Source of the DNA: an uncultured bacterium
Lineage (GTDB): Bacteria; Chlamydiota; Chlamydiia; Chlamydiales; SM23-39
Direction: 5' to 3'
Assembly (NCBI GenBank): GCA_964630875.1
Contig: CAZVXF010000006.1
Span: forward strand, 2,641-66,640
DNA length: 64,000 nucleotides
Shown: one piece after another, positions 3,452 through 30,177 of the stretch
How positions within the stretch are numbered: the stretch's first letter is position 1
Layout: each line of letters begins with the position of its first letter
Position numbers and translations under genes: made by a program
Notes under the pieces: generated by a model
What the model saw: only the letters and a program-made list of their open reading frames with translations
The model's database searches: none
What the model was told of the DNA's origin: nothing

Positions 3452-6400
3452 TCAGGTTATTAGGGTTTCGATTGAGAGCATAGATAAATATGCTTCTGCT
3501 GTGATTTCGGCATCAAGTAAAGCACCGTGCTTTGTTCTTTTTTGATTGATATTGAGCCGCAAATTCAGGGCATCGAGGCTGTTTTTTTTGTCTGGAAAGA
3601 GAAGTTTTGCAATGTCCAAGGTGTCGATGATTTGATGCTTTTTTCGGAAATCGTATTCAATGCCAGTTGCCTTGAGCTCTTCGGTAAGAAACTGAATGTC
3701 GTTATTCGCTGCATGAATAATTAAATCAGAATCTTGAATGAATTTGAGAAAATCTAACGCCACTTCATTAAATGTAGGAAATCGGGATAAAAATCGATGT
3801 GTGAGACCTGTCAAACGATGCGCTTCAGGTCTTACTCGGCATTCAGGATTTACATATCTTTGGAAGGTCTCATCGGTTCGTTTTAGATGAGTTACAACGA
3901 CACATCCAATTTCTGTGATCCGATCTGTTTTTAAACCAGTTCCTGTCATTTCAAGATCCAAAACAACTTGTCTCGTGTTAAGGGCTCTTTCTTTTAGCAT
4001 ATTGATTTTTAGAGCTGTAGAAAGGTTGGATCCGAGATTGGGAAGAGGGATTTGAATATGATCAACGTTTGCATTTACAGGGGGATTTTCGCTCTCTTTT
4101 CCTTGTTCTAGTTGATGCGCTCTTCTCAATAGCTGCTGTAGGACAATGGAAAAAGTCGTTTTTCCTTGAGAGAGGCTTTTTCGGAAAAATCCAAGCGCTT
4201 CTGAAATCAGGTTTAAGTGATAATAGGCCTTTGCTATTTTCATGCAAATATCAGCGTCAAGGCAATGGCGATCGGATGAAAATAGTTTATTCAGAATTTC
4301 AATAGAGTTTTTATAATATTCTACTGCTTCATTGTACTGTTTTTGTGCAAAATAGATGTCCCCGATCTTTTCTAATATCTCAGCGACCATGGGGTGATTG
4401 CGTGACCCGAACTCTTTTGTTTTTAGTTGGAGCGCTCGTTTAAAATAAAACAAAGCTTTTGACCAATTTTGTTGCGCAAAATCGAGTTTCCCAAATTCAT
4501 AAAACAAGTGTCCAAGCCCTACGTGTTCATCTGATTTCCAAAGTCTCACTTTGGCGTCAAAGCTTTTATTTAAATATGTAATGGCTGCTTCATATGCTTT
4601 TTGTTCTGCATAACTCATTCCGATTCCTTCTAAGCAAGAGAGTACCTCTAGATTTTCTGAATCGAATTTCAGTTCAATTTTGCCGGCTAAGCTTTTTGTA
4701 AAATAATCAATTGCCCTTTCTGGGTTTTTCTTTTTAAGCCAAATTGATCCCAACATGTATTGAATTTTAACTTGCAGATCTTTTGTTGTTCCTTCAAGAG
4801 CTTGGGAAAAGCACTCTAATGATTGATTCAATCGTCCTAAATGAAAGTAGACTTCACCAAGAGAATATAAGAGCTCAGGTCGCCTTTCAAACGGTGCGTC
4901 GATGAGCTTTGTTTTCAATTTCTTAGCAGTTAAAGAAAGTTGTAAGATTTCATTGGCTGGGCCCAAATCCTCTTTTGCAGTGATCTCGATCAGATTTAAG
5001 AATATGTCCTTAGCAGGTTTTAAGCCTTCTTCTCTCAAAACATCATTGAAATCTCTTTTCTGTCCCAATATTTTCGCCGGAGCAAATAGGATTTTCACAT
5101 TCAGTCCGCGTGAAAGAAAAGCATCTACAGTATCGATGATTGTCTGCTTGGTTTCCATATTGTATCCATCAATATCGGTGATTAACACGATCGTGCGGAC
5201 ACTTTCTTGAATCGGCACTTTGACAAGATCACTCACACCTAGTGCTGCTGTGAATTGACAATTGCATTTTTCTTGATCTTCATGAACAACGATCCCAAGC
5301 GATTTGAGTTCTTCCGGGTATGTTCTTGCGACCTCTAATGCGGATAAGACGTTTTCAGATCCTTCTCCTAAAATCTTAATTGTGGGTGTCTTGCTTCCAA
5401 AAAATGAGGTGCTCGCTCCACTAGTGACTCCTCTGGCAAGTTTCGTTTTCCATTTTTGTTTTGAAGGCTGTTTTGCATTATTCCCAAGAAATGTTCTTTC
5501 AATACCGGAAAGAACACCTTTTTCATTATAGTATGGAATCACGCGGGTAAATAATTTGAAATCTCTCACAATGATGGATCGTTCTGGGGATTCGATTTTC
5601 TGATGATCGACATAGGTGTTTTTATTGCAAATTTGAATCAGGAGCGATTTTTTTGGGTTTGTTAAACGTAATGTGACTAATAATGGTTGCGTATCTTGTT
5701 TTGAATCCCATCTTTGATCCGAAGAGATCGTCCAATATTGGTTGTCATAAAAAACCACCTTTCCTTCTAAAGAGGGTTCTTTTTGAAGAGCGCTTAAGAT
5801 TCCAGTTTTCTGATCTTTTGATTGGAGGGAGCAATTGTTTTCATGTTCGGTCCGGTCAGGATGTAACAGCATTGCCGCACGAAAATTCGTTGGGATATAG
5901 GAGATGCCCCGCAGCTGTAAATTGACTGCGACAATATTGTCTGGATCGACAATTTCACCTTTTTCATAAATGCCAATTGCTGCATTTTTCCTTTGCTCAA
6001 TGGATTCTTTGGAAGGAATGCCATTTTGGGATAGCTCCCTTTTTTCAGCGATTTTTTGAAGGATCATTTGCATTGGCAAATGTAAGTTCGAAAGTTCTTC
6101 TGCATCTTCGATTAAGCAAGCGCTCTTGAGCGATTTTGCACATCTACTTGCCCCTTTTTTTTGATCAAAAAGATCCCCGAAAGATCGTTTTTCGTGACTA
6201 TGTTCTGTACGGGGTAGAGCTATTTTTAAAGAGATTTTTTTTCTTAACAATGCGGAGATTACAGAATAGATCTCCTTGTTTTTATCGATATTGAAACCCT
6301 CATTATCGATTGCAAGAACAATTGTCCGAACCCTATTTTTTGGCGACCATTTTGATAGATCAACGGGTCTTTCTAAATAAATAATTTCTGTTTGTTCAGG

Positions 6401-7018
6401 AGGAGTCCCGTAAGAGGCGTTCCTCTCAATTGTTTGTTGGATAATCTCTCCAATTTTTTTGCTAAACGCAAGAAAAACAACTTCTGGTGTATCACTGGAA
6501 AATAGCGAAATCATTCCTGCAGGTAATGGGGACTCTTTCCTTTCGATTTCTTGAGGAGCTACTGTGACTGGCTTCTTGTTTTCGGGGGGTTGTTTTTGTT
6601 GCAAATGAGGAAGAGGGGGAGGCGTTTTTTTTTCTCCAGTCCGAGAAATGAGGGTATTTGCCTTCGGACAGGGGTTTTGTAAATTGGGTGCAGATTTTTT
6701 AGTATATCGAATTTCGGGCAGAAGTGGTGCTGGCAGGGGGGATAATGAGGGTTTAGATTCTTGATTTTCAGACTTGAGAATCGATTGTGCAATCTGAAGA
6801 GGGGCTGTTGTTTCTTGTTCTGTAGGGGTTATTTTAACGACAGTTCTTTTGGGCTTGTCTATATTTGTTGCAAAAGAAGCGATGCTCGGTCGCAGGGTAT
6901 CAATACATTTATCTAATTCAAGGAAAGATTCGGATCTTGCTTTTCTGAATGCTTTTTGAGATGCGCCAGTAGAGAGTCGAAAAAAAATAGAACCCATAGT
7001 TTTGAAAAAAAAGACCAC
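3452..7018 (-). CDS. large multidomain protein: Pro-rich N-terminus, two Toprim-like modules, TPR repeats, C-terminal DnaQ-type 3'-5' exonuclease
   Basis: 1188-aa uninterrupted ORF. The C-terminus carries ExoI VVLDLEMTGTG, ExoII IIHAANNDIQFL and ExoIII HGALLDAEITAEAY. TPR-like helices span about nt 4180-4890. Toprim-like module 2 (about nt 5035-5390) has KILGEGSENVLSAL ... TIVLITDIDGYNMETKQ ... KRDFNDVL. A degenerate module 1 (about nt 6150-6420) has TIVLAIDNEGFN ... SFGDLF. Confidence 0.7.
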   Translation of the reverse strand: MVFFFKTMGSIFFRLSTGASQKAFRKARSESFLELDKCIDTLRPSIASFATNIDKPKRTVVKITPTEQETTAPLQIAQSILKSENQESKPSLSPLPAPLLPEIRYTKKSAPNLQNPCPKANTLISRTGEKKTPPPLPHLQQKQPPENKKPVTVAPQEIERKESPLPAGMISLFSSDTPEVVFLAFSKKIGEIIQQTIERNASYGTPPEQTEIIYLERPVDLSKWSPKNRVRTIVLAIDNEGFNIDKNKEIYSVISALLRKKISLKIALPRTEHSHEKRSFGDLFDQKKGASRCAKSLKSACLIEDAEELSNLHLPMQMILQKIAEKRELSQNGIPSKESIEQRKNAAIGIYEKGEIVDPDNIVAVNLQLRGISYIPTNFRAAMLLHPDRTEHENNCSLQSKDQKTGILSALQKEPSLEGKVVFYDNQYWTISSDQRWDSKQDTQPLLVTLRLTNPKKSLLIQICNKNTYVDHQKIESPERSIIVRDFKLFTRVIPYYNEKGVLSGIERTFLGNNAKQPSKQKWKTKLARGVTSGASTSFFGSKTPTIKILGEGSENVLSALEVARTYPEELKSLGIVVHEDQEKCNCQFTAALGVSDLVKVPIQESVRTIVLITDIDGYNMETKQTIIDTVDAFLSRGLNVKILFAPAKILGQKRDFNDVLREEGLKPAKDIFLNLIEITAKEDLGPANEILQLSLTAKKLKTKLIDAPFERRPELLYSLGEVYFHLGRLNQSLECFSQALEGTTKDLQVKIQYMLGSIWLKKKNPERAIDYFTKSLAGKIELKFDSENLEVLSCLEGIGMSYAEQKAYEAAITYLNKSFDAKVRLWKSDEHVGLGHLFYEFGKLDFAQQNWSKALFYFKRALQLKTKEFGSRNHPMVAEILEKIGDIYFAQKQYNEAVEYYKNSIEILNKLFSSDRHCLDADICMKIAKAYYHLNLISEALGFFRKSLSQGKTTFSIVLQQLLRRAHQLEQGKESENPPVNANVDHIQIPLPNLGSNLSTALKINMLKERALNTRQVVLDLEMTGTGLKTDRITEIGCVVVTHLKRTDETFQRYVNPECRVRPEAHRLTGLTHRFLSRFPTFNEVALDFLKFIQDSDLIIHAANNDIQFLTEELKATGIEYDFRKKHQIIDTLDIAKLLFPDKKNSLDALNLRLNINQKRTKHGALLDAEITAEAYLSMLSIETLIT

Positions 7019-7047: not shown

Positions 7048-9420
7048 CTATCCCAACAAGCTTAAAAACCGATTTTTGAGCTTGTTTGGGTATACATAGA
7101 ATTGAATCGGAAGATTCTTTAGAGATTCAATAGCTGTGGTGCTTAGCCTTGGACAAGCAATGATTGTTAAATAGCGCAGCTTCGTGACTTTTGAAAAATC
7201 GGGTTGTTCTATGAGGGGAAAGTTTTCGATGTGAATTTCTAGAAGTTCGGGTTGTGAAGCAAGGAGTCGCGATAGAGCGTCATCTTGGATATGGATCCCA
7301 TCGCTTAGAAACATATTTGTACTTTTTTTGGGGAATTGACTCATGACGAAGATATCTTGATTTGCAACATTGGATAGGCTCGCGCTCCATGAAATGAGAT
7401 GAGGGGAATTTGTATAGATAGAAACAAGAGATTTGGCTTGAAGACGAGGGATGTTTTTCAGCGAAAAGGTCTTTAAATTCAAATGGATATTCGGGGGAAC
7501 AAAGTCTTCGATATCTAGATCATCAAGAAAGAGATGTTTCAGTTGGGGTAGGAAAATCTTTCGTACTCCTTCATCTGTGAGTAGATGGCAGTATGATAGG
7601 TCAAGGGTCATTAGTTTTTTACAATGGCGACTCATCCATTCAAGCGAACGGTCTGTCATTCTTGTACAATTGCGTAGACAGACTTGATGCCAATGCCCAG
7701 GATCGACATTCGTAATGGCTCCATCTCCCAAATGTCCCGAAGATAAATCGATGACAGGAACCTGTGGATGTTGATGAACATGGGAGATCCAGCTTTCCTC
7801 ATTCATACTGGGAGTCGCGATTAGAGAAAAATGACCACCTGGGGGAGCCCAAGCATTTTCTTCGGTAAGAGCATTTATTTCTTGGAAATACTCCTTGCAT
7901 TGGATGCTTAAGTCCCTCAGTTCCGGTCCGATATCATTGTTCTCGTCTGGATCTTTTTCTAAATGATAGCCTTTGTCTTGAATCACCTTCTTTTGTCCTA
8001 GAATGGCTCCTATTTGAAGCTCTTCCCTATGCATGGAAAAGTATGTGGGCATATTGACTTTGCGTAGGAGGCTCTTTCCAACACTATGATGGACTTCTTT
8101 TAGTTGAAGCATATCTAATACCGTAGGTAAGAAATCGACAAAACTAGCATTGCAATCCATCGTTTGCGGAGCGATTGATTGACCCAGGATTAAGAGTGGA
8201 AGATGAATATTTTCTTCATAGAGACTGTGATTGGTTTCAAAGTACGGCCTTCGCTCACCCATCTCTTGTCCATGATCCCCAGCAATAAATACGATTGATT
8301 TTTCTAAATTAATTCTCTCTAAAAACAGGTTTAGACAATGATCAGTGTACGCAAATGTTTGAAGGAAGTTTTGATAAGGATCATTTGTAAAAGATCCTGT
8401 AGGAGACTTCCATGGATGATGATTTGTAATCGTGAACAATGATAGAAAGGTTGGCAGATTTTGTTGATTAAGCCACTTCGCTGCATATCTAACCATACTT
8501 TCGTCATCTATACCCCATGAACTTGTCCTCGGCCCCTGAAGTTCTTCGCCACCAATCATTGTGTCAAAATCATGGCATTTGAAAAATGGATATAGATGAT
8601 CAAAAGATAAATCGCCGCTTTGAATAATCGCGTTATGGTATCCATTTTTTTTCAAAATTTGTGGTAACCCAATCATTGACATGGAACAAAAAGGCTTCAA
8701 ACTCACAGTTCTTAAATGCGCGGGTATTCCAAAGTATGCAGAGATAAAAGCTCTAAAAGTTTGCAAGCCATTTGCATGAAAGTTACGGAATAAAATGCCT
8801 TGTTTTGCCCACTTATCAAAATGAGGTGAAACAGGAATTTTTGCTCCCAAACAGCCCACATTTTTCGCTCGAAATGATTCGAGAAAAATAAAAATGATAT
8901 TTGGCTTTTCAAGTTTAACATTGAAACTTTTCTCTCCCAAAAAAGCATCCGTTTTCCGTAAAGCCGGATAAAGAGGGGAGAGCATTGTGGCGATTTCATT
9001 TGGAAAAGAAAGCTTTGGAAGATGACTTTTCCTTTTTGGCTTGTAAAAAGAAGCGAATAGAGAAAATGGGAGTAACAGACACCAAAACACAGAAGGGGGA
9101 GGGAGAAGAAAACATGACAAAAGACTTAAGAAAACACCAACACACAAAGGCTTTTTTCTTGGTATCGTTTGAAAAGAGTCGAAAAAGCATCTTGGAGATT
9201 TGATAAAAGTGAGAATGTCAGCTTGATAGCGAAAGAAACCATACCATCTAATATATAGTCCAAAGGCAAAAGGCACCCAAAGAAATCTAGGTAGAGGAGA
9301 AAGGATAAATAAGGAAAGGACAGTTAATTCTTGCGCGCTGCTGCGAAGATGAAGAGATTTGTTTTTATGCAGTTCGTACAAGCGAATGAAAAGAAAGAGG
9401 GCGAGAGTTGTACAGATCAT
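7048..9420 (-). CDS. membrane-anchored sulfatase / LTA-synthase-like enzyme fused to C-terminal CC-type leucine-rich repeats
   Basis: 790 aa. The N-terminus has several hydrophobic helices. The sulfatase core reads NIIFIFLESFRAKNVGCLG ... FTITNHHPW ... FIAGDHGQEMGE. The C-terminus reads CLRNCTRMTDRSLEWMSRHCKKLMTLDLSYCHLLTDEGV plus further LRRs (FBXL/AMN1-like). The last ~15 codons are encoded by the palindromic repeat at 7049-7096. Confidence 0.7.
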   Translation of the reverse strand: MICTTLALFLFIRLYELHKNKSLHLRSSAQELTVLSLFILSPLPRFLWVPFAFGLYIRWYGFFRYQADILTFIKSPRCFFDSFQTIPRKKPLCVGVFLSLLSCFLLPPPSVFWCLLLPFSLFASFYKPKRKSHLPKLSFPNEIATMLSPLYPALRKTDAFLGEKSFNVKLEKPNIIFIFLESFRAKNVGCLGAKIPVSPHFDKWAKQGILFRNFHANGLQTFRAFISAYFGIPAHLRTVSLKPFCSMSMIGLPQILKKNGYHNAIIQSGDLSFDHLYPFFKCHDFDTMIGGEELQGPRTSSWGIDDESMVRYAAKWLNQQNLPTFLSLFTITNHHPWKSPTGSFTNDPYQNFLQTFAYTDHCLNLFLERINLEKSIVFIAGDHGQEMGERRPYFETNHSLYEENIHLPLLILGQSIAPQTMDCNASFVDFLPTVLDMLQLKEVHHSVGKSLLRKVNMPTYFSMHREELQIGAILGQKKVIQDKGYHLEKDPDENNDIGPELRDLSIQCKEYFQEINALTEENAWAPPGGHFSLIATPSMNEESWISHVHQHPQVPVIDLSSGHLGDGAITNVDPGHWHQVCLRNCTRMTDRSLEWMSRHCKKLMTLDLSYCHLLTDEGVRKIFLPQLKHLFLDDLDIEDFVPPNIHLNLKTFSLKNIPRLQAKSLVSIYTNSPHLISWSASLSNVANQDIFVMSQFPKKSTNMFLSDGIHIQDDALSRLLASQPELLEIHIENFPLIEQPDFSKVTKLRYLTIIACPRLSTTAIESLKNLPIQFYVYPNKLKNRFLSLLG
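7049..7096. repeat. 46-nt imperfect palindrome, copy 1 of a 2-copy family
   Basis: The sequence is tatcccaacaagcttaaaaaccgatttttgagcttgtttgggtataca. A near-identical copy lies at 28901-28950 in the same orientation. The stem is CCCAACAAGCTTAAAAA/TTTTTGAGCTTGTTTGGG. Confidence 0.8.
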
Positions 9421-9476: not shown

Positions 9477-9959
9477 TTATTTGCTATTTGAATTGTTCTC
9501 GGGTTCGTCACTCGGCAGAAAGGGAGTACAGTGGCATACAAGCCATTGATTGATGAGTTTGCTTTCGTTGCACTCTGGAACCAACAGTATAGCGTTATTG
9601 TATGTTTCTAGATCAATTTTAAGTTTTGCAAGAAGACCTTTTTTTTCATAATCGGGGAATAGATCTCTAGAATCCTTTGGAACAATTTTTAGCAAATATT
9701 TTTTAAAAGTACAAAATTGGCCTATATCGAGTGCTGATTGATTGGCTTGCTCTTGCGTTTGGATAGCATCGAAATTTCTCAGAGCTCTCAAATGAAGTTG
9801 ATTCACGATCTCTATTATGTTGCGAGGTTCATCTTTCCCAGCGAGCCAAGTGCTGATTCTTCGAAATCCTGTTCTAAGTTCTTCGAAAGTGTTATTACAC
9901 AATTCGGTAAGAGCAGTTACGTCTGGTTTGTTATTAACAGCTTTCATTTCTACCGACAT
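9477..9959 (-). CDS. hypothetical protein
   Basis: 160-aa ORF with no competing frame and no recognisable motif. Confidence 0.45.
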   Translation of the reverse strand: MSVEMKAVNNKPDVTALTELCNNTFEELRTGFRRISTWLAGKDEPRNIIEIVNQLHLRALRNFDAIQTQEQANQSALDIGQFCTFKKYLLKIVPKDSRDLFPDYEKKGLLAKLKIDLETYNNAILLVPECNESKLINQWLVCHCTPFLPSDEPENNSNSK

Positions 9960-10315
9960 TTATTTACTCCAATAAAGCTTATCATTATCTTAACATAAAA
10001 TTTATTTAGTGGCAAAAACGGTTAGTTAAGAACTGTATTAAGTTAATGGTTGTCAATGACTTAAGATGTAATTGTTTTCGCAACTAACTGATTACAAGTA
10101 AGATAGAGAGTTGGGATGCTTTTCTGCCTCGAGTATACAACAAAAAAATGATTGAGCCCCCTTCTGGTTAGTGGGAACAAATTTGAGGTTCTCGAAAAGA
10201 CTTGCATACTTTCATTTTGAACGATCCACAAAGAGAAATCTCGAGAATTTTTAATATTCAGAAACACTCAAGTTTGTTAATCTTCTTCGCAAAAATAAAA
10301 ACAGAGAGGAGCATA

Positions 10316-11242
10316 ATGAGCATCACGCCTGCAAATAATAAGAATATTGTTACGATGACTAGAAATCCTGCTGCAGTAGGTGCGGCTGCTGGTTTTCTTT
10401 CGACTGTTACTGCAGAAATAACTCGTGGTAGTAAAGAAGATTTCACTTCCACGTGGGTGAGGCGTACTCTTCCTACTGTGACGGGGTTTGCATCTGGCAA
10501 ACTATTAGAGAATACTTTACCTGATAATCCAGGGAATTCTATCATTGCGGCTTTAGTCGCGGCTGTTTTTTCTGTCGCATGCCAGAAATACTTTCGAACA
10601 AGTGGTTTAGACCCAAAGCTTTCAATGGGTCAACTTCTAGAAAAATACGGAACCCTAGATGAAATCTATCGTCAGGAAGGAAACACACATTCATTTTTAT
10701 TATCTCTAAATAACAAACTTCTCGAATGGTTCCCGGAAAATACCTCTTTTTCTGCCATTATGGAAAAAATTCCATTTTGTCATACATACGTTAGCATTTG
10801 TCAAGACTATAGTGAATCTGAATTGGGACGAGGATCTCAAAAGCTTTCTTCGCAAGCATTTGTAGCAAGGTTGCTTGAAGCCTTTGTGAATGAACTGGCA
10901 GCAGATCCGAAAGTGTTTTTGCAGAAGCTTTATAGAAATGAAGCAAAGTGGAAATTCTTTTCAGAAGAGACACACCCTGTACTTTGGCTCGGCATCCCAC
11001 AAGAAGGACAGCATACACAACCCACTGTAGATCATCTGAAAGATATCGCAAAAATTCTTTCCGAAGTAGAAAATTCTGAAGAGGAAAAGGCACGACTCAT
11101 AAAGGCGGTTGAGAAGATAAAAATGGGTCTTTCTTCGAATGAATGTATATTCGTTAGAAATGGGAAATTAGAATCATGGAAAGAATTTAGGGTTTCCATA
11201 CTCGCTAAATTAGATGATACGCTTGTTAGATTGCGACAATGA
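10316..11242 (+). CDS. hypothetical protein (start set at the RBS-preceded ATG; the ORF is open from 10202)
   Basis: agagaggagcataATG precedes MSITPANNKNIV.... There is an Ala/Gly-rich hydrophobic N-terminal segment and no known domain. Confidence 0.5.
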   Translation: MSITPANNKNIVTMTRNPAAVGAAAGFLSTVTAEITRGSKEDFTSTWVRRTLPTVTGFASGKLLENTLPDNPGNSIIAALVAAVFSVACQKYFRTSGLDPKLSMGQLLEKYGTLDEIYRQEGNTHSFLLSLNNKLLEWFPENTSFSAIMEKIPFCHTYVSICQDYSESELGRGSQKLSSQAFVARLLEAFVNELAADPKVFLQKLYRNEAKWKFFSEETHPVLWLGIPQEGQHTQPTVDHLKDIAKILSEVENSEEEKARLIKAVEKIKMGLSSNECIFVRNGKLESWKEFRVSILAKLDDTLVRLRQ

Positions 11243-19601: not shown

Positions 19602-20267
19602 TTATTTCACTAGATCTTTTGCGAATTTAACCCATTGGTCTATTGCTTTATGGAAAGTAGGGATTTGATACCAGCTTACGATACCAATGCCCATCATACC
19701 TAAGGTCGCTGCTTTTTTAGGCTGCTCATAGCAAAAATCTTTGATTGTCTGTAGTGTAGCAATGCCTAGATTTGCTGTTTTAACGACGATGGATTTTGCG
19801 CCTTCTAAAACATCAGAAACAACTTCTGCAGTTTCTTGAGAAACTAAACTGGAAAGTGTCGCTGCCCCCGTAATTGTTGCTGCACAGAGATAGGGCTCTG
19901 TTTGAATGATTTCCACACACTTGAGAACCAGTGTCGGAGCTTTTTCGACAAAATATGTTGGTAGAGGTTTATCAGAAAAAGTTTTGAATGCAATTCCTGC
20001 AGCAGCGCCAATGAGAAGGCTTCTCGTTATGGAAGGGAGTCTAAACACATATTTTAAGCCTGTCTTTTGAACAATATTTTCTTTAATGCCAACAGGGATT
20101 CTAGCTTGATCTGCGGGAGTCAGTCCATTGAGAATGAAATTTGCTAAAAAAGCCGCTTTTCTTTTTTCGATTGTAAGTATGTGCTGTGGACCATTGTCTG
20201 GATCAAATGTTGTTGTAATTACAACATCACTTGGGTCTAGATTAAGTGTAATTGTATCTATAGACAT
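19602..20267 (-). CDS. hypothetical protein (two short hydrophobic segments)
   Basis: 221-aa ORF with no known motif. Confidence 0.5.
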   Translation of the reverse strand: MSIDTITLNLDPSDVVITTTFDPDNGPQHILTIEKRKAAFLANFILNGLTPADQARIPVGIKENIVQKTGLKYVFRLPSITRSLLIGAAAGIAFKTFSDKPLPTYFVEKAPTLVLKCVEIIQTEPYLCAATITGAATLSSLVSQETAEVVSDVLEGAKSIVVKTANLGIATLQTIKDFCYEQPKKAATLGMMGIGIVSWYQIPTFHKAIDQWVKFAKDLVK

Positions 20268-20322
20268 AATAATTCTCCTTTTTTCAGGATAATTATCGGT
20301 CTATTTTAAATAATTAACAAGC

Positions 20323-20356
20323 AAAAAAAAAGGCTCAAGGAATATCCTTGAGCCTT
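20323..20356 (-). terminator. rho-independent terminator of groESL
   Basis: The stem is AAGGCTCAAGG-aatat-CCTTGAGCCTT. On the minus strand it is followed by a T9 run, about 27 nt after the groEL stop. Confidence 0.75.
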
Positions 20357-20382
20357 TGTAAAAAAATTCTTTGAAAAAGAGC

Positions 20383-22337
<1,955 letters not shown>

Positions 22338-22411
22338 AAGTTATCATCTCCAATTAATTACTTGTTCTGAGAAAGGACTATACCGTATGGAATCAATATT
22401 TGCAAGCAAAA

Positions 22412-22438
22412 TTAGCAAACAGGCTGTCGAATTGCTAA
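22412..22438 (-). promoter_or_regulatory. CIRCE-like inverted repeat (putative HrcA operator) upstream of groES
   Basis: TTAGCAAAC-aggctgtcg-AATTGCTAA has 9-9-9 geometry. Each arm matches 7/9 of the consensus TTAGCACTC-N9-GAGTGCTAA. It lies 75-101 nt upstream of the groES start. Confidence 0.6.
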
Positions 22439-22509
22439 TCTTTTGTTTTTCACTCTTTGCTGATTCGAATAACCAATTGATAAACAATATCTTAAATGAG
22501 GAAACTGGG

Positions 22510-24309
22510 ATGGCTAAATCACGAGAACAAATTCCTGAAAATGACCGCTGGAACGTTGGTGCTCTCTATCCAGATGTAGAGATTTGGTTAAAAGATTTTT
22601 TATTGGTCCAAGAAAGTGAGAAAGCGCCTCATTGGGCAACCTTGCAGTCCTATAGAGGTCGATTAAAAGATCCAGTTGTTGCATCTGCTTTTTTTGATGT
22701 GTATTTGGATCTCGATAGAAAATTGTCGAAACTGTCTACATATGCTCATCTCCGTATGGATGAAGATGTGGGAAATGACCAAAACAAAAGCAACTATGGA
22801 AAGATCTCAACGCTTCAGCATGCATTTCAGCTTGAGAGCTCTTGGATTGTCCCAGAAATCTTGAGTTTATCGGATTCCGATTACGCGCACCTACTCAAAC
22901 ATCCGCTCATGAAAAATTTCCAATTTTTCTTGGAAAATATTGGTCGTATGCGTGCACATACTTTAGCTCCAGAACAAGAAGAGCTCTTGGCTATGAGTGG
23001 AAAGGCGTTGGAAACTGCTCACTCGGCTTTTGGTGCACTCAATAACGCGGATCTCCATTTTTCACCCGCGATTGATTCGCAAGGGAAAGAGCATCCTCTT
23101 TCGCATGGATCTTATTTGAGCTATTTGCGAAGTCCAGATCGGAATTTGAGAAAAACTGCCTTTATCAACTTACATAAAAGCTATGATCAGTTTGCAAATA
23201 CAATCTGTGAATTAATTCAGGGACAAGTACAAAGTCATCTCTTTGCCGCAAAATCGCGTAAATTTTCCAGTTGCCTTGAAGCCGCTTTGTATCCACATGC
23301 AGTGGATACAAAAGTGTATACAAATCTGATTGCGACTGTGAGAAAGAATCTTCCTAAAATGCATGAGTACATTGCTTTTCGCAAAAAGAAGATGAAGCTC
23401 GATACCATTCATGTTTACGATCTTTACGCGCCGATCGCAGAAGAGGTAAAAATGGAAATGAGCTATCCAGAGGCGTGTCAGGTGATTGCTGAATCTGTGA
23501 GCATTCTTGGAAAAGAGTATCAAAATGTACTGAAAAGCGGCCTAACAACAGATCGCTGGGTCGATGTATTTGAAAATGTGCGTAAACGCAGTGGCGCTTA
23601 TTCAAGCGGCTGTTATGACAGTATGCCATATATTTTAATGAATTATCACGGGACTTTTGGAGATGTTACAACTCTTGCTCATGAAGCAGGGCATAGTATG
23701 CATAGTTACTTAAGTCGTGCAAATCAGCCGTATATCTATTCGCGTTATCCGATTTTTGTAGCTGAAGTGGCATCCACATTTAACGAACAGCTTTTACTGA
23801 AATTAATGAAAGAAAGAGCGAAAAGTAAAAGCGAGCGTGCCTATCTCATTAATGATGAAATTGAACGCATTCGAGGAACTATTTTTAGACAAACAATGTT
23901 TGCTGAGTTTGAGCTACAACTTCACAAATGGGCAGAGGAAGGAGTGACTTTGACGCCTGAGCTTTTAAAGAAAGCCTATATACAACTCAATCGCGATTAT
24001 TATGGTCCCGATCTTACTTTAGATCCAGAGCTTGAAATCGAATGGGCTCGCATTCCGCATTTCTATTACAATTTCTACGTGTACCAATATGCGACTGGCC
24101 TGAGCGCTGCAATGGCATTGAATCAGTTGGTTTTATCTTCAAGCGATGCAAAAGATCGGTATCTTGCGTTTCTTTCTTCAGGAGGGAGTCAATTTCCTCT
24201 TGATCTATTGGAAAAAGCGGGTGTGAACATGCGCTCTTCCGAGCCTATTGATGCTGCCATGGCTAAATTTCAGTCTCTTGTAGAGGAGTTTAAAAGTATA
24301 ACTAAATAA
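22510..24309 (+). CDS. pepF: oligoendopeptidase F (M3B family)
   Basis: It contains the HEAGHSMH zinc motif. Start chosen at MAKSREQIPENDRWNV (ATG 22510). The longer ORF from 22309 overlaps groES and the CIRCE element. Confidence 0.9.
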   Translation: MAKSREQIPENDRWNVGALYPDVEIWLKDFLLVQESEKAPHWATLQSYRGRLKDPVVASAFFDVYLDLDRKLSKLSTYAHLRMDEDVGNDQNKSNYGKISTLQHAFQLESSWIVPEILSLSDSDYAHLLKHPLMKNFQFFLENIGRMRAHTLAPEQEELLAMSGKALETAHSAFGALNNADLHFSPAIDSQGKEHPLSHGSYLSYLRSPDRNLRKTAFINLHKSYDQFANTICELIQGQVQSHLFAAKSRKFSSCLEAALYPHAVDTKVYTNLIATVRKNLPKMHEYIAFRKKKMKLDTIHVYDLYAPIAEEVKMEMSYPEACQVIAESVSILGKEYQNVLKSGLTTDRWVDVFENVRKRSGAYSSGCYDSMPYILMNYHGTFGDVTTLAHEAGHSMHSYLSRANQPYIYSRYPIFVAEVASTFNEQLLLKLMKERAKSKSERAYLINDEIERIRGTIFRQTMFAEFELQLHKWAEEGVTLTPELLKKAYIQLNRDYYGPDLTLDPELEIEWARIPHFYYNFYVYQYATGLSAAMALNQLVLSSSDAKDRYLAFLSSGGSQFPLDLLEKAGVNMRSSEPIDAAMAKFQSLVEEFKSITK

Positions 24310-28986: not shown

Positions 28987-29016
28987 TTGACTTAAATGCA
29001 TAAAGAAATTTATAAA
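28987..29016 (+). promoter_or_regulatory. candidate sigma70/66-type promoter of the RecT module
   Basis: TTGACT (28987-28992), then 18 nt, then TATAAA (29011-29016). If it is used, the first gene starts at ATG 29077, which is preceded by GGAGaaaagat. Confidence 0.3.
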
Positions 29017-30177
29017 ATTTGCGGAAAAACAAGAAACTATCGATTAGCGAATGATGAACTACTTTGGAGAAAAGATATGCGAATCTATCAAGTACTAGGC
29101 CGTTTTCACAGCTTTAGTAAAAATATTACATCTATACGGGACCCTCTTTGTTTGAAGACTTCCGCACTTGTAGGTCCGATTCTGTTTTCGAGCTCTAGAG
29201 GCGTTTTTACAGCTTTGCAAAAAGAGCAGTCAGGGTTTGTAGATCGGATCACTGGATTTGAGGAAAATCCAGAGAAACGAAAGTCAATGACTGACCAGCT
29301 GAAAACTTTAGGGTTTATGTGGAGTGGCGATAGTAAATCTTGGGTCCCTCGCAAAGAAGTTCAGATGAGTACAGTTGAAGCTATTTTAAAAGGTTCAAGC
29401 GAATCGGTGGCTCCTGCACGAGAAGCCATCTCGACTGCTGCGAGTTATCCAAAGAGAATTGATGGTCTTTTAACAAAATGGTCAGATTCAATCGGTAAAG
29501 TCCTTCCAAGACAAATCAGAAAAGATAAATTCATGGAATCTCTTAGAATTGCTTTGATCAATGCAGAAAGGGCTGGCAATGTTTCTTCAGACGAAGCTTT
29601 AAGAACAGCTTGTATGAGATGTGCTGAGATTGGTCTTGTTCCAGGTCCATTACAAGAATGTTATTTTTCAACTCGAGACAATCAAATCGAGTTTCTCTTA
29701 GGATATAAGGGGATTATCGCCTTAGCAAGAAGAACTTCTCCACACATCCAAATTGAGACCCAAGTGGTTCGGAAAGGAGATGATTTTTCCTTTAGTCTTG
29801 GAACCAAGCCGAAGGTTTCTCTCAATCAATCGATCGATGCAAATCCAGAAGAGATCGAATATGCATACGTGCTCATCCGATTCCCTGAAGGAGTAGAAAA
29901 ACTTGTCGTGATTGATAAGGCGCATGTTGAAAAGAGAAAAGCGTGTTCGAAAGGCGTACATGCTACGAGCTCTCCTTGGAATAAATTCCAAAGAGAGATG
30001 TGGCTAAAGACTGCGTTAAGAGAGGCTTTTAGGTTTGTAAACCTTTCAACCGAAACAAATATCTCGCAAGACTTTGACCATGCAAAGCAATCGATTCGAG
30101 AATTTATCCATTACCTTCAAGATGAAGTTGAGGATTTTGAGAAAAAAGAAATAGGAAAAACGGAAACTTCTATATGA
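28996..30177 (+). CDS. RecT-family single-strand annealing protein with N-terminal extension (paralog 1; alternative start 29077)
   Basis: The C-terminal ~220 aa read ...CAEIGLVPGPLQECYFSTRDNQIEFLLGYKGIIALARRTSPHIQIETQVVRKGDDFSF...YAYVLIRFPEG...SSPWNKFQREMWLKTALREAFRFV, which is the RecT pattern. The N-terminus carries KTLGFMWSGDSKSWVP. Confidence 0.7.
   Translation: MHKEIYKICGKTRNYRLANDELLWRKDMRIYQVLGRFHSFSKNITSIRDPLCLKTSALVGPILFSSSRGVFTALQKEQSGFVDRITGFEENPEKRKSMTDQLKTLGFMWSGDSKSWVPRKEVQMSTVEAILKGSSESVAPAREAISTAASYPKRIDGLLTKWSDSIGKVLPRQIRKDKFMESLRIALINAERAGNVSSDEALRTACMRCAEIGLVPGPLQECYFSTRDNQIEFLLGYKGIIALARRTSPHIQIETQVVRKGDDFSFSLGTKPKVSLNQSIDANPEEIEYAYVLIRFPEGVEKLVVIDKAHVEKRKACSKGVHATSSPWNKFQREMWLKTALREAFRFVNLSTETNISQDFDHAKQSIREFIHYLQDEVEDFEKKEIGKTETSI

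Follow-up and report, generated by a model that had tools for sequence, protein, structure and literature searches.

What is the function of a protein that carries a primase-type catalytic core and a proofreading-type exonuclease in one polypeptide? The question is raised by a minus-strand gene in a 64,000-nucleotide stretch of DNA (hereafter the window) from an uncultured bacterium of the Chlamydiota (assembly GCA_964630875.1, contig CAZVXF010000006.1, positions 2,641 to 66,640). The gene is real and intact, and encodes a rare, giant multidomain protein. All of its parts are known folds, whereas the combination of a dead and a live primase core with a proofreading-type exonuclease is new and occurs in two permuted architectures. 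We tentatively favour a dispensable role in the repair of the organism's own DNA, and weigh this reading below against four rivals as the evidence is set out.

The open reading frame (ORF) runs uninterrupted over 3452..7018 of the minus strand, with 1188 codons counted from a GTG. As the orthologues (MSSIFF or MGSFLFF) and the NCBI gene model (an identical protein of 1181 residues that starts MGSIFF, named ‘MAG TPA: exonuclease domain-containing protein [Chlamydiales bacterium]’) start from position 6997, an ATG, this codon is most likely the real start. Residues are numbered here on the 1181-residue protein (ORF numbering minus 7), and the positions of Pfam matches are given in ORF numbering. 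An original prediction made from the letters of the DNA had described this ORF as two related modules, the second with a Toprim signature and the first degenerate, followed by TPR repeats and an intact epsilon-type exonuclease and preceded by a Pro/Gln/Lys-rich N-terminus. The ORF is as described, every sequence string quoted in support is found in the translation, and each of these assignments is borne out by the searches described below. The features of the gene, with the evidence on which each was placed, are as follows (pLDDT, predicted local distance difference test).

3452..6997, minus strand: complete coding sequence, 1181 residues and stop, read from ATG 6997 (as called automatically, the ORF reaches the GTG at 7018)
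6530..6997, minus strand: residues 1-156, disordered, Pro/Lys-rich, fast-evolving region (pLDDT below 50, composition, low identity)
6023..6529, minus strand: residues 157-325, module 1, degenerate (pseudo-)Toprim with a C-terminal helical tail (hhalign against module 2, sub-threshold Toprim_3, alpha/beta fold with pLDDT of about 90)
5393..6022, minus strand: residues 326-535, DUF7146-like N-terminal subdomain (hhalign to DUF7146+Toprim_3 proteins, Foldseek to DnaG RNA-polymerase domains)
5546..5854, minus strand: residues ~382-484, family-specific, mostly beta insert of ~103 residues (gap in hhalign, strands in the AlphaFold2 model)
4898..5392, minus strand: residues 536-700, active-looking Toprim_3 with a conserved tail, LG...E.LQLSL (Pfam PF13362, invariant columns)
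4103..4897, minus strand: residues 701-965, TPR solenoid of ~14 helices, or ~7 hairpins (TPR_12/TPR_1/TPR_2, E 1e-24 to 1e-25; high-pLDDT helices)
3983..4102, minus strand: residues 966-1005, variable low-confidence linker (pLDDT below 50 at 961-990; 25-48% identity)
3455..3982, minus strand: residues 1006-1181, epsilon-like DEDDh 3'-5' exonuclease (RNase_T, epsilon structures, invariant columns)

The predicted primase core, its degenerate copy and the exonuclease

The second module matches Toprim_3 (PF13362) at ORF residues 549-665 with 35.3 bits, above the gathering score of 27.2, and the residues expected of an active Toprim, i.e. E545, G546 and E548, D608 and D610, and D649, F650, N651 and D652, are invariant. 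The original prediction was to fall if the Toprim-like segments gave no significant profile match; with module 2 above the Pfam threshold, it withstands this check. Toprim_2 and Toprim_3, like Toprim_4, are active DnaG-like primase domains of mobile elements, recognisable by a D-aromatic-N-acidic motif (Iyer et al. 2017, PMC5512222), and this motif is present and invariant as D649-F-N-D652; it lies in the KRDFNDVL string that had been likened, correctly, to conjugative primases. The likeness extends well upstream of the Toprim fold. The region between the two modules, which is matched neither by Pfam DUF7146 itself nor by any other Pfam family, aligns together with module 2 to DUF7146+Toprim_3 proteins over 252 columns (hhalign 100%, E 3e-52), interrupted by one gap of ~103 residues. 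Residues 326-535 carry the motifs RGI...FR..HPD, RVIPY..G...G.ERTF and K.KLARG, and the ~103-residue insert, in the region of which QYW and N447 are invariant, falls between ‘HPD’ and ‘RVIPY’; neither ordinary DUF7146/Toprim_3 proteins nor the permuted sister family described below have it.

Structure prediction, which had been proposed as a check, agrees with these alignments. The AlphaFold2 model of residues 151-700, computed with nine family sequences, has a mean pLDDT of 88.7, and the top 13 PDB matches that Foldseek returns for this core are all catalytic domains of DnaG or T7 gp4 primases (2au3, 5guj, 1dd9, 1eqn, 3b39, 5ikn and 4edg, with E 1e-5 to 6e-4 over 200-225 columns, and 5vaz). 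At 200-245 columns, the primase alignments are roughly double the size of a Toprim fold by itself, and DnaG/twinkle-type primases head the matches to predicted viral structures. The N-terminal subdomain holds six invariant basic residues (R363, R373, R485, R501, K519 and R522) that may correspond to the ridge by which DnaG binds template and nucleoside triphosphates. The live ‘Toprim’ is the C-terminal half of a complete, predicted DnaG/TraC-type primase catalytic core that keeps all metal-binding acidic residues; of the original description, the Toprim identity holds, whereas the notion of a separate Toprim module gives way to that of a larger core.

Module 1 has lost the catalytic Glu and has D-N-E in the place of DxD, with D-N-x-G for D-x-D-G and SFGD for DFND, and in a profile search it reaches, alone, a sub-threshold 12.4 bits against Toprim_3 (E 0.22). 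Its sub-alignment across the family nevertheless matches that of module 2 over 117 columns that include the post-Toprim helical tail (hhalign 99.3%, E 5e-20). A phmmer search with module 1 retrieves the Toprim regions of many unrelated Toprim_3 proteins, the reverse search works too, and the predicted secondary structure repeats across both modules. The two modules are therefore true duplicates, of which module 1 is a pseudo-enzyme copy.

The acidic residues of the live Toprim would fit hydrolysis equally well, and one rival reading makes the protein a dual nuclease in which the Toprim core cuts in the manner of OLD-family or RNase M5-type enzymes, the DEDDh domain degrades (e.g. foreign DNA) and the TPR region acts as a sensor. 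Such a role would suit the interchangeability of the partner nuclease (DnaQ-type or DUF2779, see below), and defence systems often join Toprim to a nuclease or use TPR as a sensor. PADLOC-DB gave matches to generic DEDDh, PDC-S48 (exonuclease domain only) and TPR models, and to no defence-system model beyond these generic domains, and we have rejected the assignment to a described defence system. The fold matches, however, span the whole primase catalytic core and not the Toprim part only, the D-aromatic-N-acidic motif and the DUF7146 subdomain place the protein in the primase clade, an OLD-type ATPase is absent, and the neighbourhoods are made up of repair and housekeeping genes rather than of defence islands. 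We regard a dual nuclease as improbable.

Downstream of the core, TPR_12, TPR_1, TPR_2 and TPR_8 all exceed their Pfam thresholds within ORF residues 714-949, and ~14 helices are predicted over 685-964. The C-terminal domain matches RNase_T (PF00929) over the full model (1-164 of 164) at ORF residues 1018-1177, with 102.2 bits against a threshold of 24 (E 5.8e-29), and D1014 and E1016 (Exo I), D1100 (Exo II) and H1157 and D1162 (Exo III) are invariant in all alignments. It aligns with the Escherichia coli epsilon structures 2gui/1j53 at E 2e-30 (108 bits), and its best NCBIfam models are the proteobacterial epsilon equivalogs PRK05711 (166 bits against a cut-off of 196) and TIGR01406 (161 against 222.7), both of which it misses. 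Of the 234 positions of PRK05711, 1-171 are matched, and the chain terminates six residues further on; thus the C-terminal segment of epsilon, the site of Pol III alpha binding and of the clamp-binding motif, is absent. With every equivalog cut-off missed and the C-terminal third lacking, we reject a canonical epsilon identity, in line with the original view that this is not the canonical dnaQ.

The same data bear on whether the protein could be a replisome variant, i.e. an alternative proofreading subunit tied to a primase-like module at the replication fork. Its exonuclease is closest to proteobacterial epsilon by the scores just given and a primase-type core stands in the same chain, whereas the absent C-terminal segment, the missed cut-offs and the disruption of the gene in one relative (see below) argue against it. 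As a motif scan finds the family in none of 185,579 GTDB species representatives, it is no core part of the replisome, and we consider this reading very unlikely.

A rare family and its permuted sister

A HMMER search with residues 173-693 over 1.84 billion representatives gave 61 matches. The full architecture recurs in the same order in 9 to 12 clusters at 33-76% identity (P0002-4, P0008-10, P0013, P0014, P0071 and P0072), with P0021 as a more remote member of the same domain order. Some dozen clusters in ~15 billion proteins make this a very rare family, of which the members seen are all metagenomic. It is found neither in the GTDB representatives nor, by a family profile scan, in IMG/VR, and a scan of JGI metagenomes returned one contig only, which was already known. 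Database entries name its members at most ‘exonuclease domain-containing protein’ or ‘DNA polymerase-3 subunit epsilon’.

In both enzymatic domains, even proteins at 29-36% identity keep the catalytic residues unchanged. Relative to an orthologue of 72% identity, the ratio of nonsynonymous to synonymous substitution (dN/dS) is 0.11 overall, 0.05 in the Toprim module, 0.07 in the exonuclease and 0.18 in module 1, values that are approximate because dS is near saturation. The gene is under strong purifying selection, which is strongest in the two catalytic domains. In one lineage it is broken: L015 and L016, two assemblies that may come from a single sample, have an orthologue that is split by a frameshift near residues 434-453 and by an insertion sequence, whose DDE_5 transposase gene (L015 9919-11283) sits at about residue 1063 within the exonuclease domain, the remainder of the domain lying beyond it. 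By tblastn, the first two segments are ~54-60% identical to the window protein, and the exonuclease remnant of 118 residues is 75% identical to it. The original prediction had held that a gene split or frameshifted in close relatives would tell against it; this is the state of affairs in this one lineage, while more than ten other family members are intact. We take the broken copy, with its frameshift and insertion, to show that the gene is dispensable and not that it is spurious. The L015 contig also holds transposase fragments (DDE_Tnp_4, HTH_Tnp_4) and a Fic gene.

Among 40 more distant Toprim relatives, DUF7146+Toprim_3 is present in 36, an RNase_T exonuclease is present as well in 18, and six are TrwC/TraI-type relaxase-helicases. 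The exonuclease-bearing order is a permuted one: in ~1000 residues, a Pro-rich N-terminus is followed by the exonuclease, a stretch of ~330 residues, DUF7146 and Toprim_3. Since the ~330-residue stretch is itself a degenerate DUF7146+Toprim copy (hhalign 99.6%, E 8e-25), the tandem of dead and live copies and the exonuclease are common to both families. The permuted-family exonucleases match that of the window protein with 100-145 bits, similar to or above E. coli epsilon (108 bits). The sister family shares with the window protein the same three catalytic or pseudo-catalytic parts, the conserved post-Toprim tail and the proline-rich N-terminus, and with some window orthologues a chromosomal location beside repair genes. 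It differs in that the exonuclease is N-terminal, a TPR region is not detected, the 103-residue insert is lacking and the dead copy keeps its DUF7146 part. Database annotation of this sister family goes no further than ‘DNA polymerase-3 subunit epsilon’. A further variant, P0036, has module 1, Toprim and TPR without a DnaQ domain, and carries at its N-terminus DUF2779, which we take to be a PD-(D/E)XK-type nuclease domain. Since the exonuclease is kept in the permuted order and DUF2779 replaces DnaQ in P0036, the Toprim pair has a nuclease as its constant companion, irrespective of the fold or place of the latter.

A genome scan places the permuted family in an alphaproteobacterial metagenome-assembled genome (MAG), where the gene adjoins nuoLMN/ccmC, and in a MAG labelled Myxococcaceae (L010, JBAXMC010000007.1). 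The latter contig has 40% GC, far below typical Myxococcaceae, and the bin assignment, of the contig or of the MAG, is doubtful.

Genomic context and a possible role in repair

The window gene lies between tadA, which is convergent and 19 nucleotides away, and an upstream gene for a sulfatase/LTA-synthase-like membrane protein with C-terminal leucine-rich repeats (LRRs), with rpsO, prfA, prmC, ffh and trmD in the neighbourhood. This is a plain chromosomal housekeeping locus and not a mobile element: its flanks hold no mobile-element genes, tra and relaxase genes are absent from the flanks seen for the window and the chlamydia-like orthologous loci, and no conjugative or integrative element context was seen at any of these, so that such a setting was rejected. 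The window holds no second exonuclease or Toprim gene.

These observations bear directly on a mobile origin. Toprim_3 proteins are overwhelmingly associated with plasmids or conjugation (PMC7213743, PMC5512222), and the window protein might be a relic, a transfer primase of the TraC1/Sog/TraI type that was captured by a chromosome and either still serves transfer or element replication or has no role. The sole plasmid match is the C-terminus of a Legionella TraI, the TIGR02760 TraI model matches the same region, six of the distant relatives are relaxase-helicases and one copy of the gene is decaying, all of which would agree with such an origin. Against it stand the lack of relaxase, type IV secretion system or integrase genes in the flanks examined on chlamydia-like contigs, the strong purifying selection on both catalytic domains and the retention of the architecture over deep divergence. 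An element-derived transfer primase of this kind seems to us an improbable account of the gene.

A survey of orthologous neighbourhoods, the second check that had been proposed, turns up repair genes at several loci. In L002 (P0004), rnhC is followed by recN and then by the family gene, which recN overlaps by 4 nt. In L001 (P0002), the gene stands between tag and fpg on one side and photolyase and dinB on the other; an ATP/ADP translocase, typical of chlamydiae, is also present. The neighbours in L008 (P0013) are uninformative, and this contig holds a dacA-ybbR pair like that of Chlamydia. In the permuted family, the gene adjoins a gene for a NAD-dependent LigA-like ligase of 1346-1352 residues at two loci (L003 3917-7975 and L014 1617-5657), and the two permuted proteins concerned are only ~30% identical. 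These long ligases have two adenylation-domain and two OB-domain matches each, an apparent tandem duplication; at one of the loci, two photolyase genes and a photolyase-related gene stand with them in a row on one strand, and at the other the two genes are divergent.

A further group of members is found on ORFan-rich contigs. In L019 (P0071; stretch 20052-22820), a UvrD-like helicase, ankyrin and NIF genes are present, and a family-B polymerase, for which eukaryotic Pol delta gives the best PDB matches, lies ~7 kb from the gene in this one virus-like contig. L006 and L017 (P0008 and P0072) hold T5orf172/MUG113, Dam/Dcm-type methyltransferases and a ResIII helicase, and in L004 and L005 (P0021, 26% GC) a DEAD/ResIII helicase is directly upstream. 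By their gene content, we read the contigs of P0071, P0072, P0008 and P0021 as giant-virus-like; the mimivirus early-promoter motif AAAATTGA is not enriched in them, and the assignment is thus one of gene content only. Their gene content suggests gene transfer between chlamydiae and large DNA viruses.

Because both active sites are conserved, the partnership with a nuclease recurs and several loci adjoin repair genes, we favour, at somewhat less than even confidence, a dispensable cytoplasmic enzyme of DNA repair or damage tolerance that acts on the organism's own DNA. The primase-like core would bind single-stranded DNA exposed at gaps, stalled forks or broken ends, where it would probably lay down a short RNA primer, and the tethered exonuclease would trim mismatched, damaged or ribonucleotide 3' ends such that polymerase and ligase could finish. 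The pseudo-Toprim and the TPR region may act as structural or partner-binding parts, and the N-terminal tail may recruit a partner.

Several observations weigh against a repair primase. The zinc-binding and helicase-binding domains that canonical DnaG needs were not found: no zinc-ribbon or CHC2 profile matches, and the sole Cys conserved upstream of the Toprim module is C286, so that there is no Cys cluster. A search of the PDB with the family profile retrieved no primase by sequence, and it is the fold search and the Pfam Toprim_3 match only that make the link to DnaG. We know of no established role for a 3'-5' exonuclease beside a primase. The full-length AlphaFold2 model has a predicted template modelling score of 0.46 and gives no reliable inter-domain arrangement. 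The window's own neighbours (tadA, the sulfatase-LRR protein and prfA) are uninformative on repair, as are several other loci. Finally, the conserved polyproline motifs and the patchy spread of the family among protist-associated microbes would also fit an effector.

These polyproline motifs lie in the N-terminal tail. Residues 1-156 contain 13% Pro and 11% Lys (17% Pro and 8% Gln over residues 45-156), and their identity to orthologues is 17-35% as compared with 52-85% in the Toprim module. A short R-K-V-V-K motif is conserved in the tail, which also has degenerate copies of a motif made up of a hydrophobic residue and PPPP. Motifs of the form hydrophobic-PPPP(P) recur in the N-termini of P0002, P0004, P0010 and P0014 and in 16 of the 17 proteins of the permuted family, frequently as a pair separated by ~30 residues (DLPPPPPLQLE, IFEPPPPPPS, which occurs twice, FIPPPPPL and LIPPPPPPP are examples); the copy in the window protein is degenerate (residues ~85-135, nt ~6593-6745). 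We take these motifs to resemble eukaryotic profilin, EVH1 and SH3 ligands. The disorder of the N-terminus is compatible with a secretion signal, albeit unspecific.

The original prediction had left open a secreted or host-directed nuclease on the one hand and a DNA-processing system on the other, and it is the latter that is better supported; secretion finds no direct support and runs against the linkage to repair genes. In its full form, a secreted effector would be exported by type III secretion and act on host DNA or proteins, with the tail and the TPR region binding eukaryotic partners and the nuclease and primase-like domains damaging or manipulating host nucleic acids. The disordered N-terminus with its recurrent motifs would be in agreement with this, as would the TPR region (TPR is common in effectors), the spread over chlamydia-like, alphaproteobacterial and giant-virus-like contigs, the dispensability of the gene in one lineage and the eukaryote-like LRRs of the neighbouring window gene. 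On the other hand, the operon-like overlap with recN and the repeated adjacency to photolyase, fpg, dinB and LigA point to genes that serve the bacterium's own genome. The alphaproteobacterial members share the N-terminal layout and yet would need a different secretion route, and those on virus-like contigs mostly lack the long tail. An effector is, in our judgement, unlikely.

Extending the repair reading, we can envisage, more speculatively, an undescribed class of ‘primase-proofreader’ proteins in which a DnaG-type core and an epsilon-type exonuclease, with the long LigA in relatives, would re-prime and clean damaged ends. Such a class might have passed horizontally between protist-associated chlamydiae, alphaproteobacteria and giant viruses, and its polyproline motifs might recruit a partner.

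Other genes of the window can be noted here. The adjoining upstream gene on the same strand (7048-9420, minus) encodes 790 residues with a hydrophobic N-terminus, as read from its translation, and a sulfatase/LTA-synthase-like domain, and ends in eukaryote-like leucine-rich repeats (LRR_6), an unusual combination. Three nearby ORFs of 160-346 residues have no significant Pfam or NCBIfam family (2312-2953, plus; 9477-9959, minus; 10202-11242, plus). Further away, a same-strand row at 28996-36196 (plus) comprises two RecT-family genes (393 and 389 residues), a PD-(D/E)XK nuclease (PDDEXK_2, 263 residues) and a protein of 1350 residues, and looks like a recombination module. The 1350-residue ORF (32144-36196) was considered as a counterpart of the long LigA partner and rejected, as its last ~480 residues are those of a RecQ-like helicase (DEAD, Helicase_C, RecQ_Zn_bind and RQC); its N-terminal extension of ~860 residues gives only a weak family-A polymerase match.

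Relation to known systems

Among characterised proteins, the TraC1/Sog-type primases and the TraI C-terminal domain come closest to the core, and proteobacterial epsilon comes closest to the exonuclease. With the conjugative primases (RP4 TraC1 and ColIb/R64 Sog; PF13362 with DUF7146, PF23639), the window protein shares Toprim_3 with its E, DxD and D-aromatic-N-acidic motif, the DUF7146-type subdomain and the fold of the DnaG RNA-polymerase domain. Unlike them, it is encoded on a chromosome with no conjugation genes nearby, and it has the ~103-residue insert, a preceding dead Toprim and a TPR-linked DEDDh exonuclease; it shares no more than 27% identity with any plasmid protein. Among annotated sequences, the C-terminal domain of TraI (TIGR02760, model positions 1725-1874 of 1960) matches residues ~494-670 best, and a Legionella pneumophila plasmid TraI shows 27% identity by tblastn. 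The relaxase and helicase domains of TraI are, however, lacking in the window protein, which scores 44 bits against a cut-off of 930.

With DnaQ epsilon, the protein shares all three Exo motifs, and its closest models are proteobacterial, whereas it has only the catalytic domain of ~170 residues at the end of a 1181-residue multidomain chain, the linker and C-terminal segment of epsilon being missing. DnaG and the T7 gp4/twinkle-type primases are the best structural matches of the predicted core, and the window protein differs from these in having no zinc-binding, helicase-interaction or helicase domain and in that TPR and exonuclease follow the core. Without a conjugative context, and without an epsilon tail or cut-off score, it therefore fits neither parent family. 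A looser likeness, by analogy only, is to LigD, which combines a primase-type nucleotidyl transferase with a nuclease that processes 3' ends, and the permuted family repeatedly adjoins a ligase. LigD is built from unrelated folds, namely a primase domain of the archaeo-eukaryotic type, a phosphoesterase and an ATP-dependent ligase, and no Ku gene was seen.

Literature searches found no description of a DnaQ-Toprim fusion. If both activities cooperate, the family would represent a new way of coupling priming with 3' end editing in repair, and it would exemplify domestication, in which a conjugative-type primase is recruited for chromosomal use. It is also one more instance of a gene shared between chlamydia-like, alphaproteobacterial and giant-virus-like contigs, whose owners may have the same protist hosts. 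For annotation, members of this family should not carry the label of Pol III epsilon subunit.

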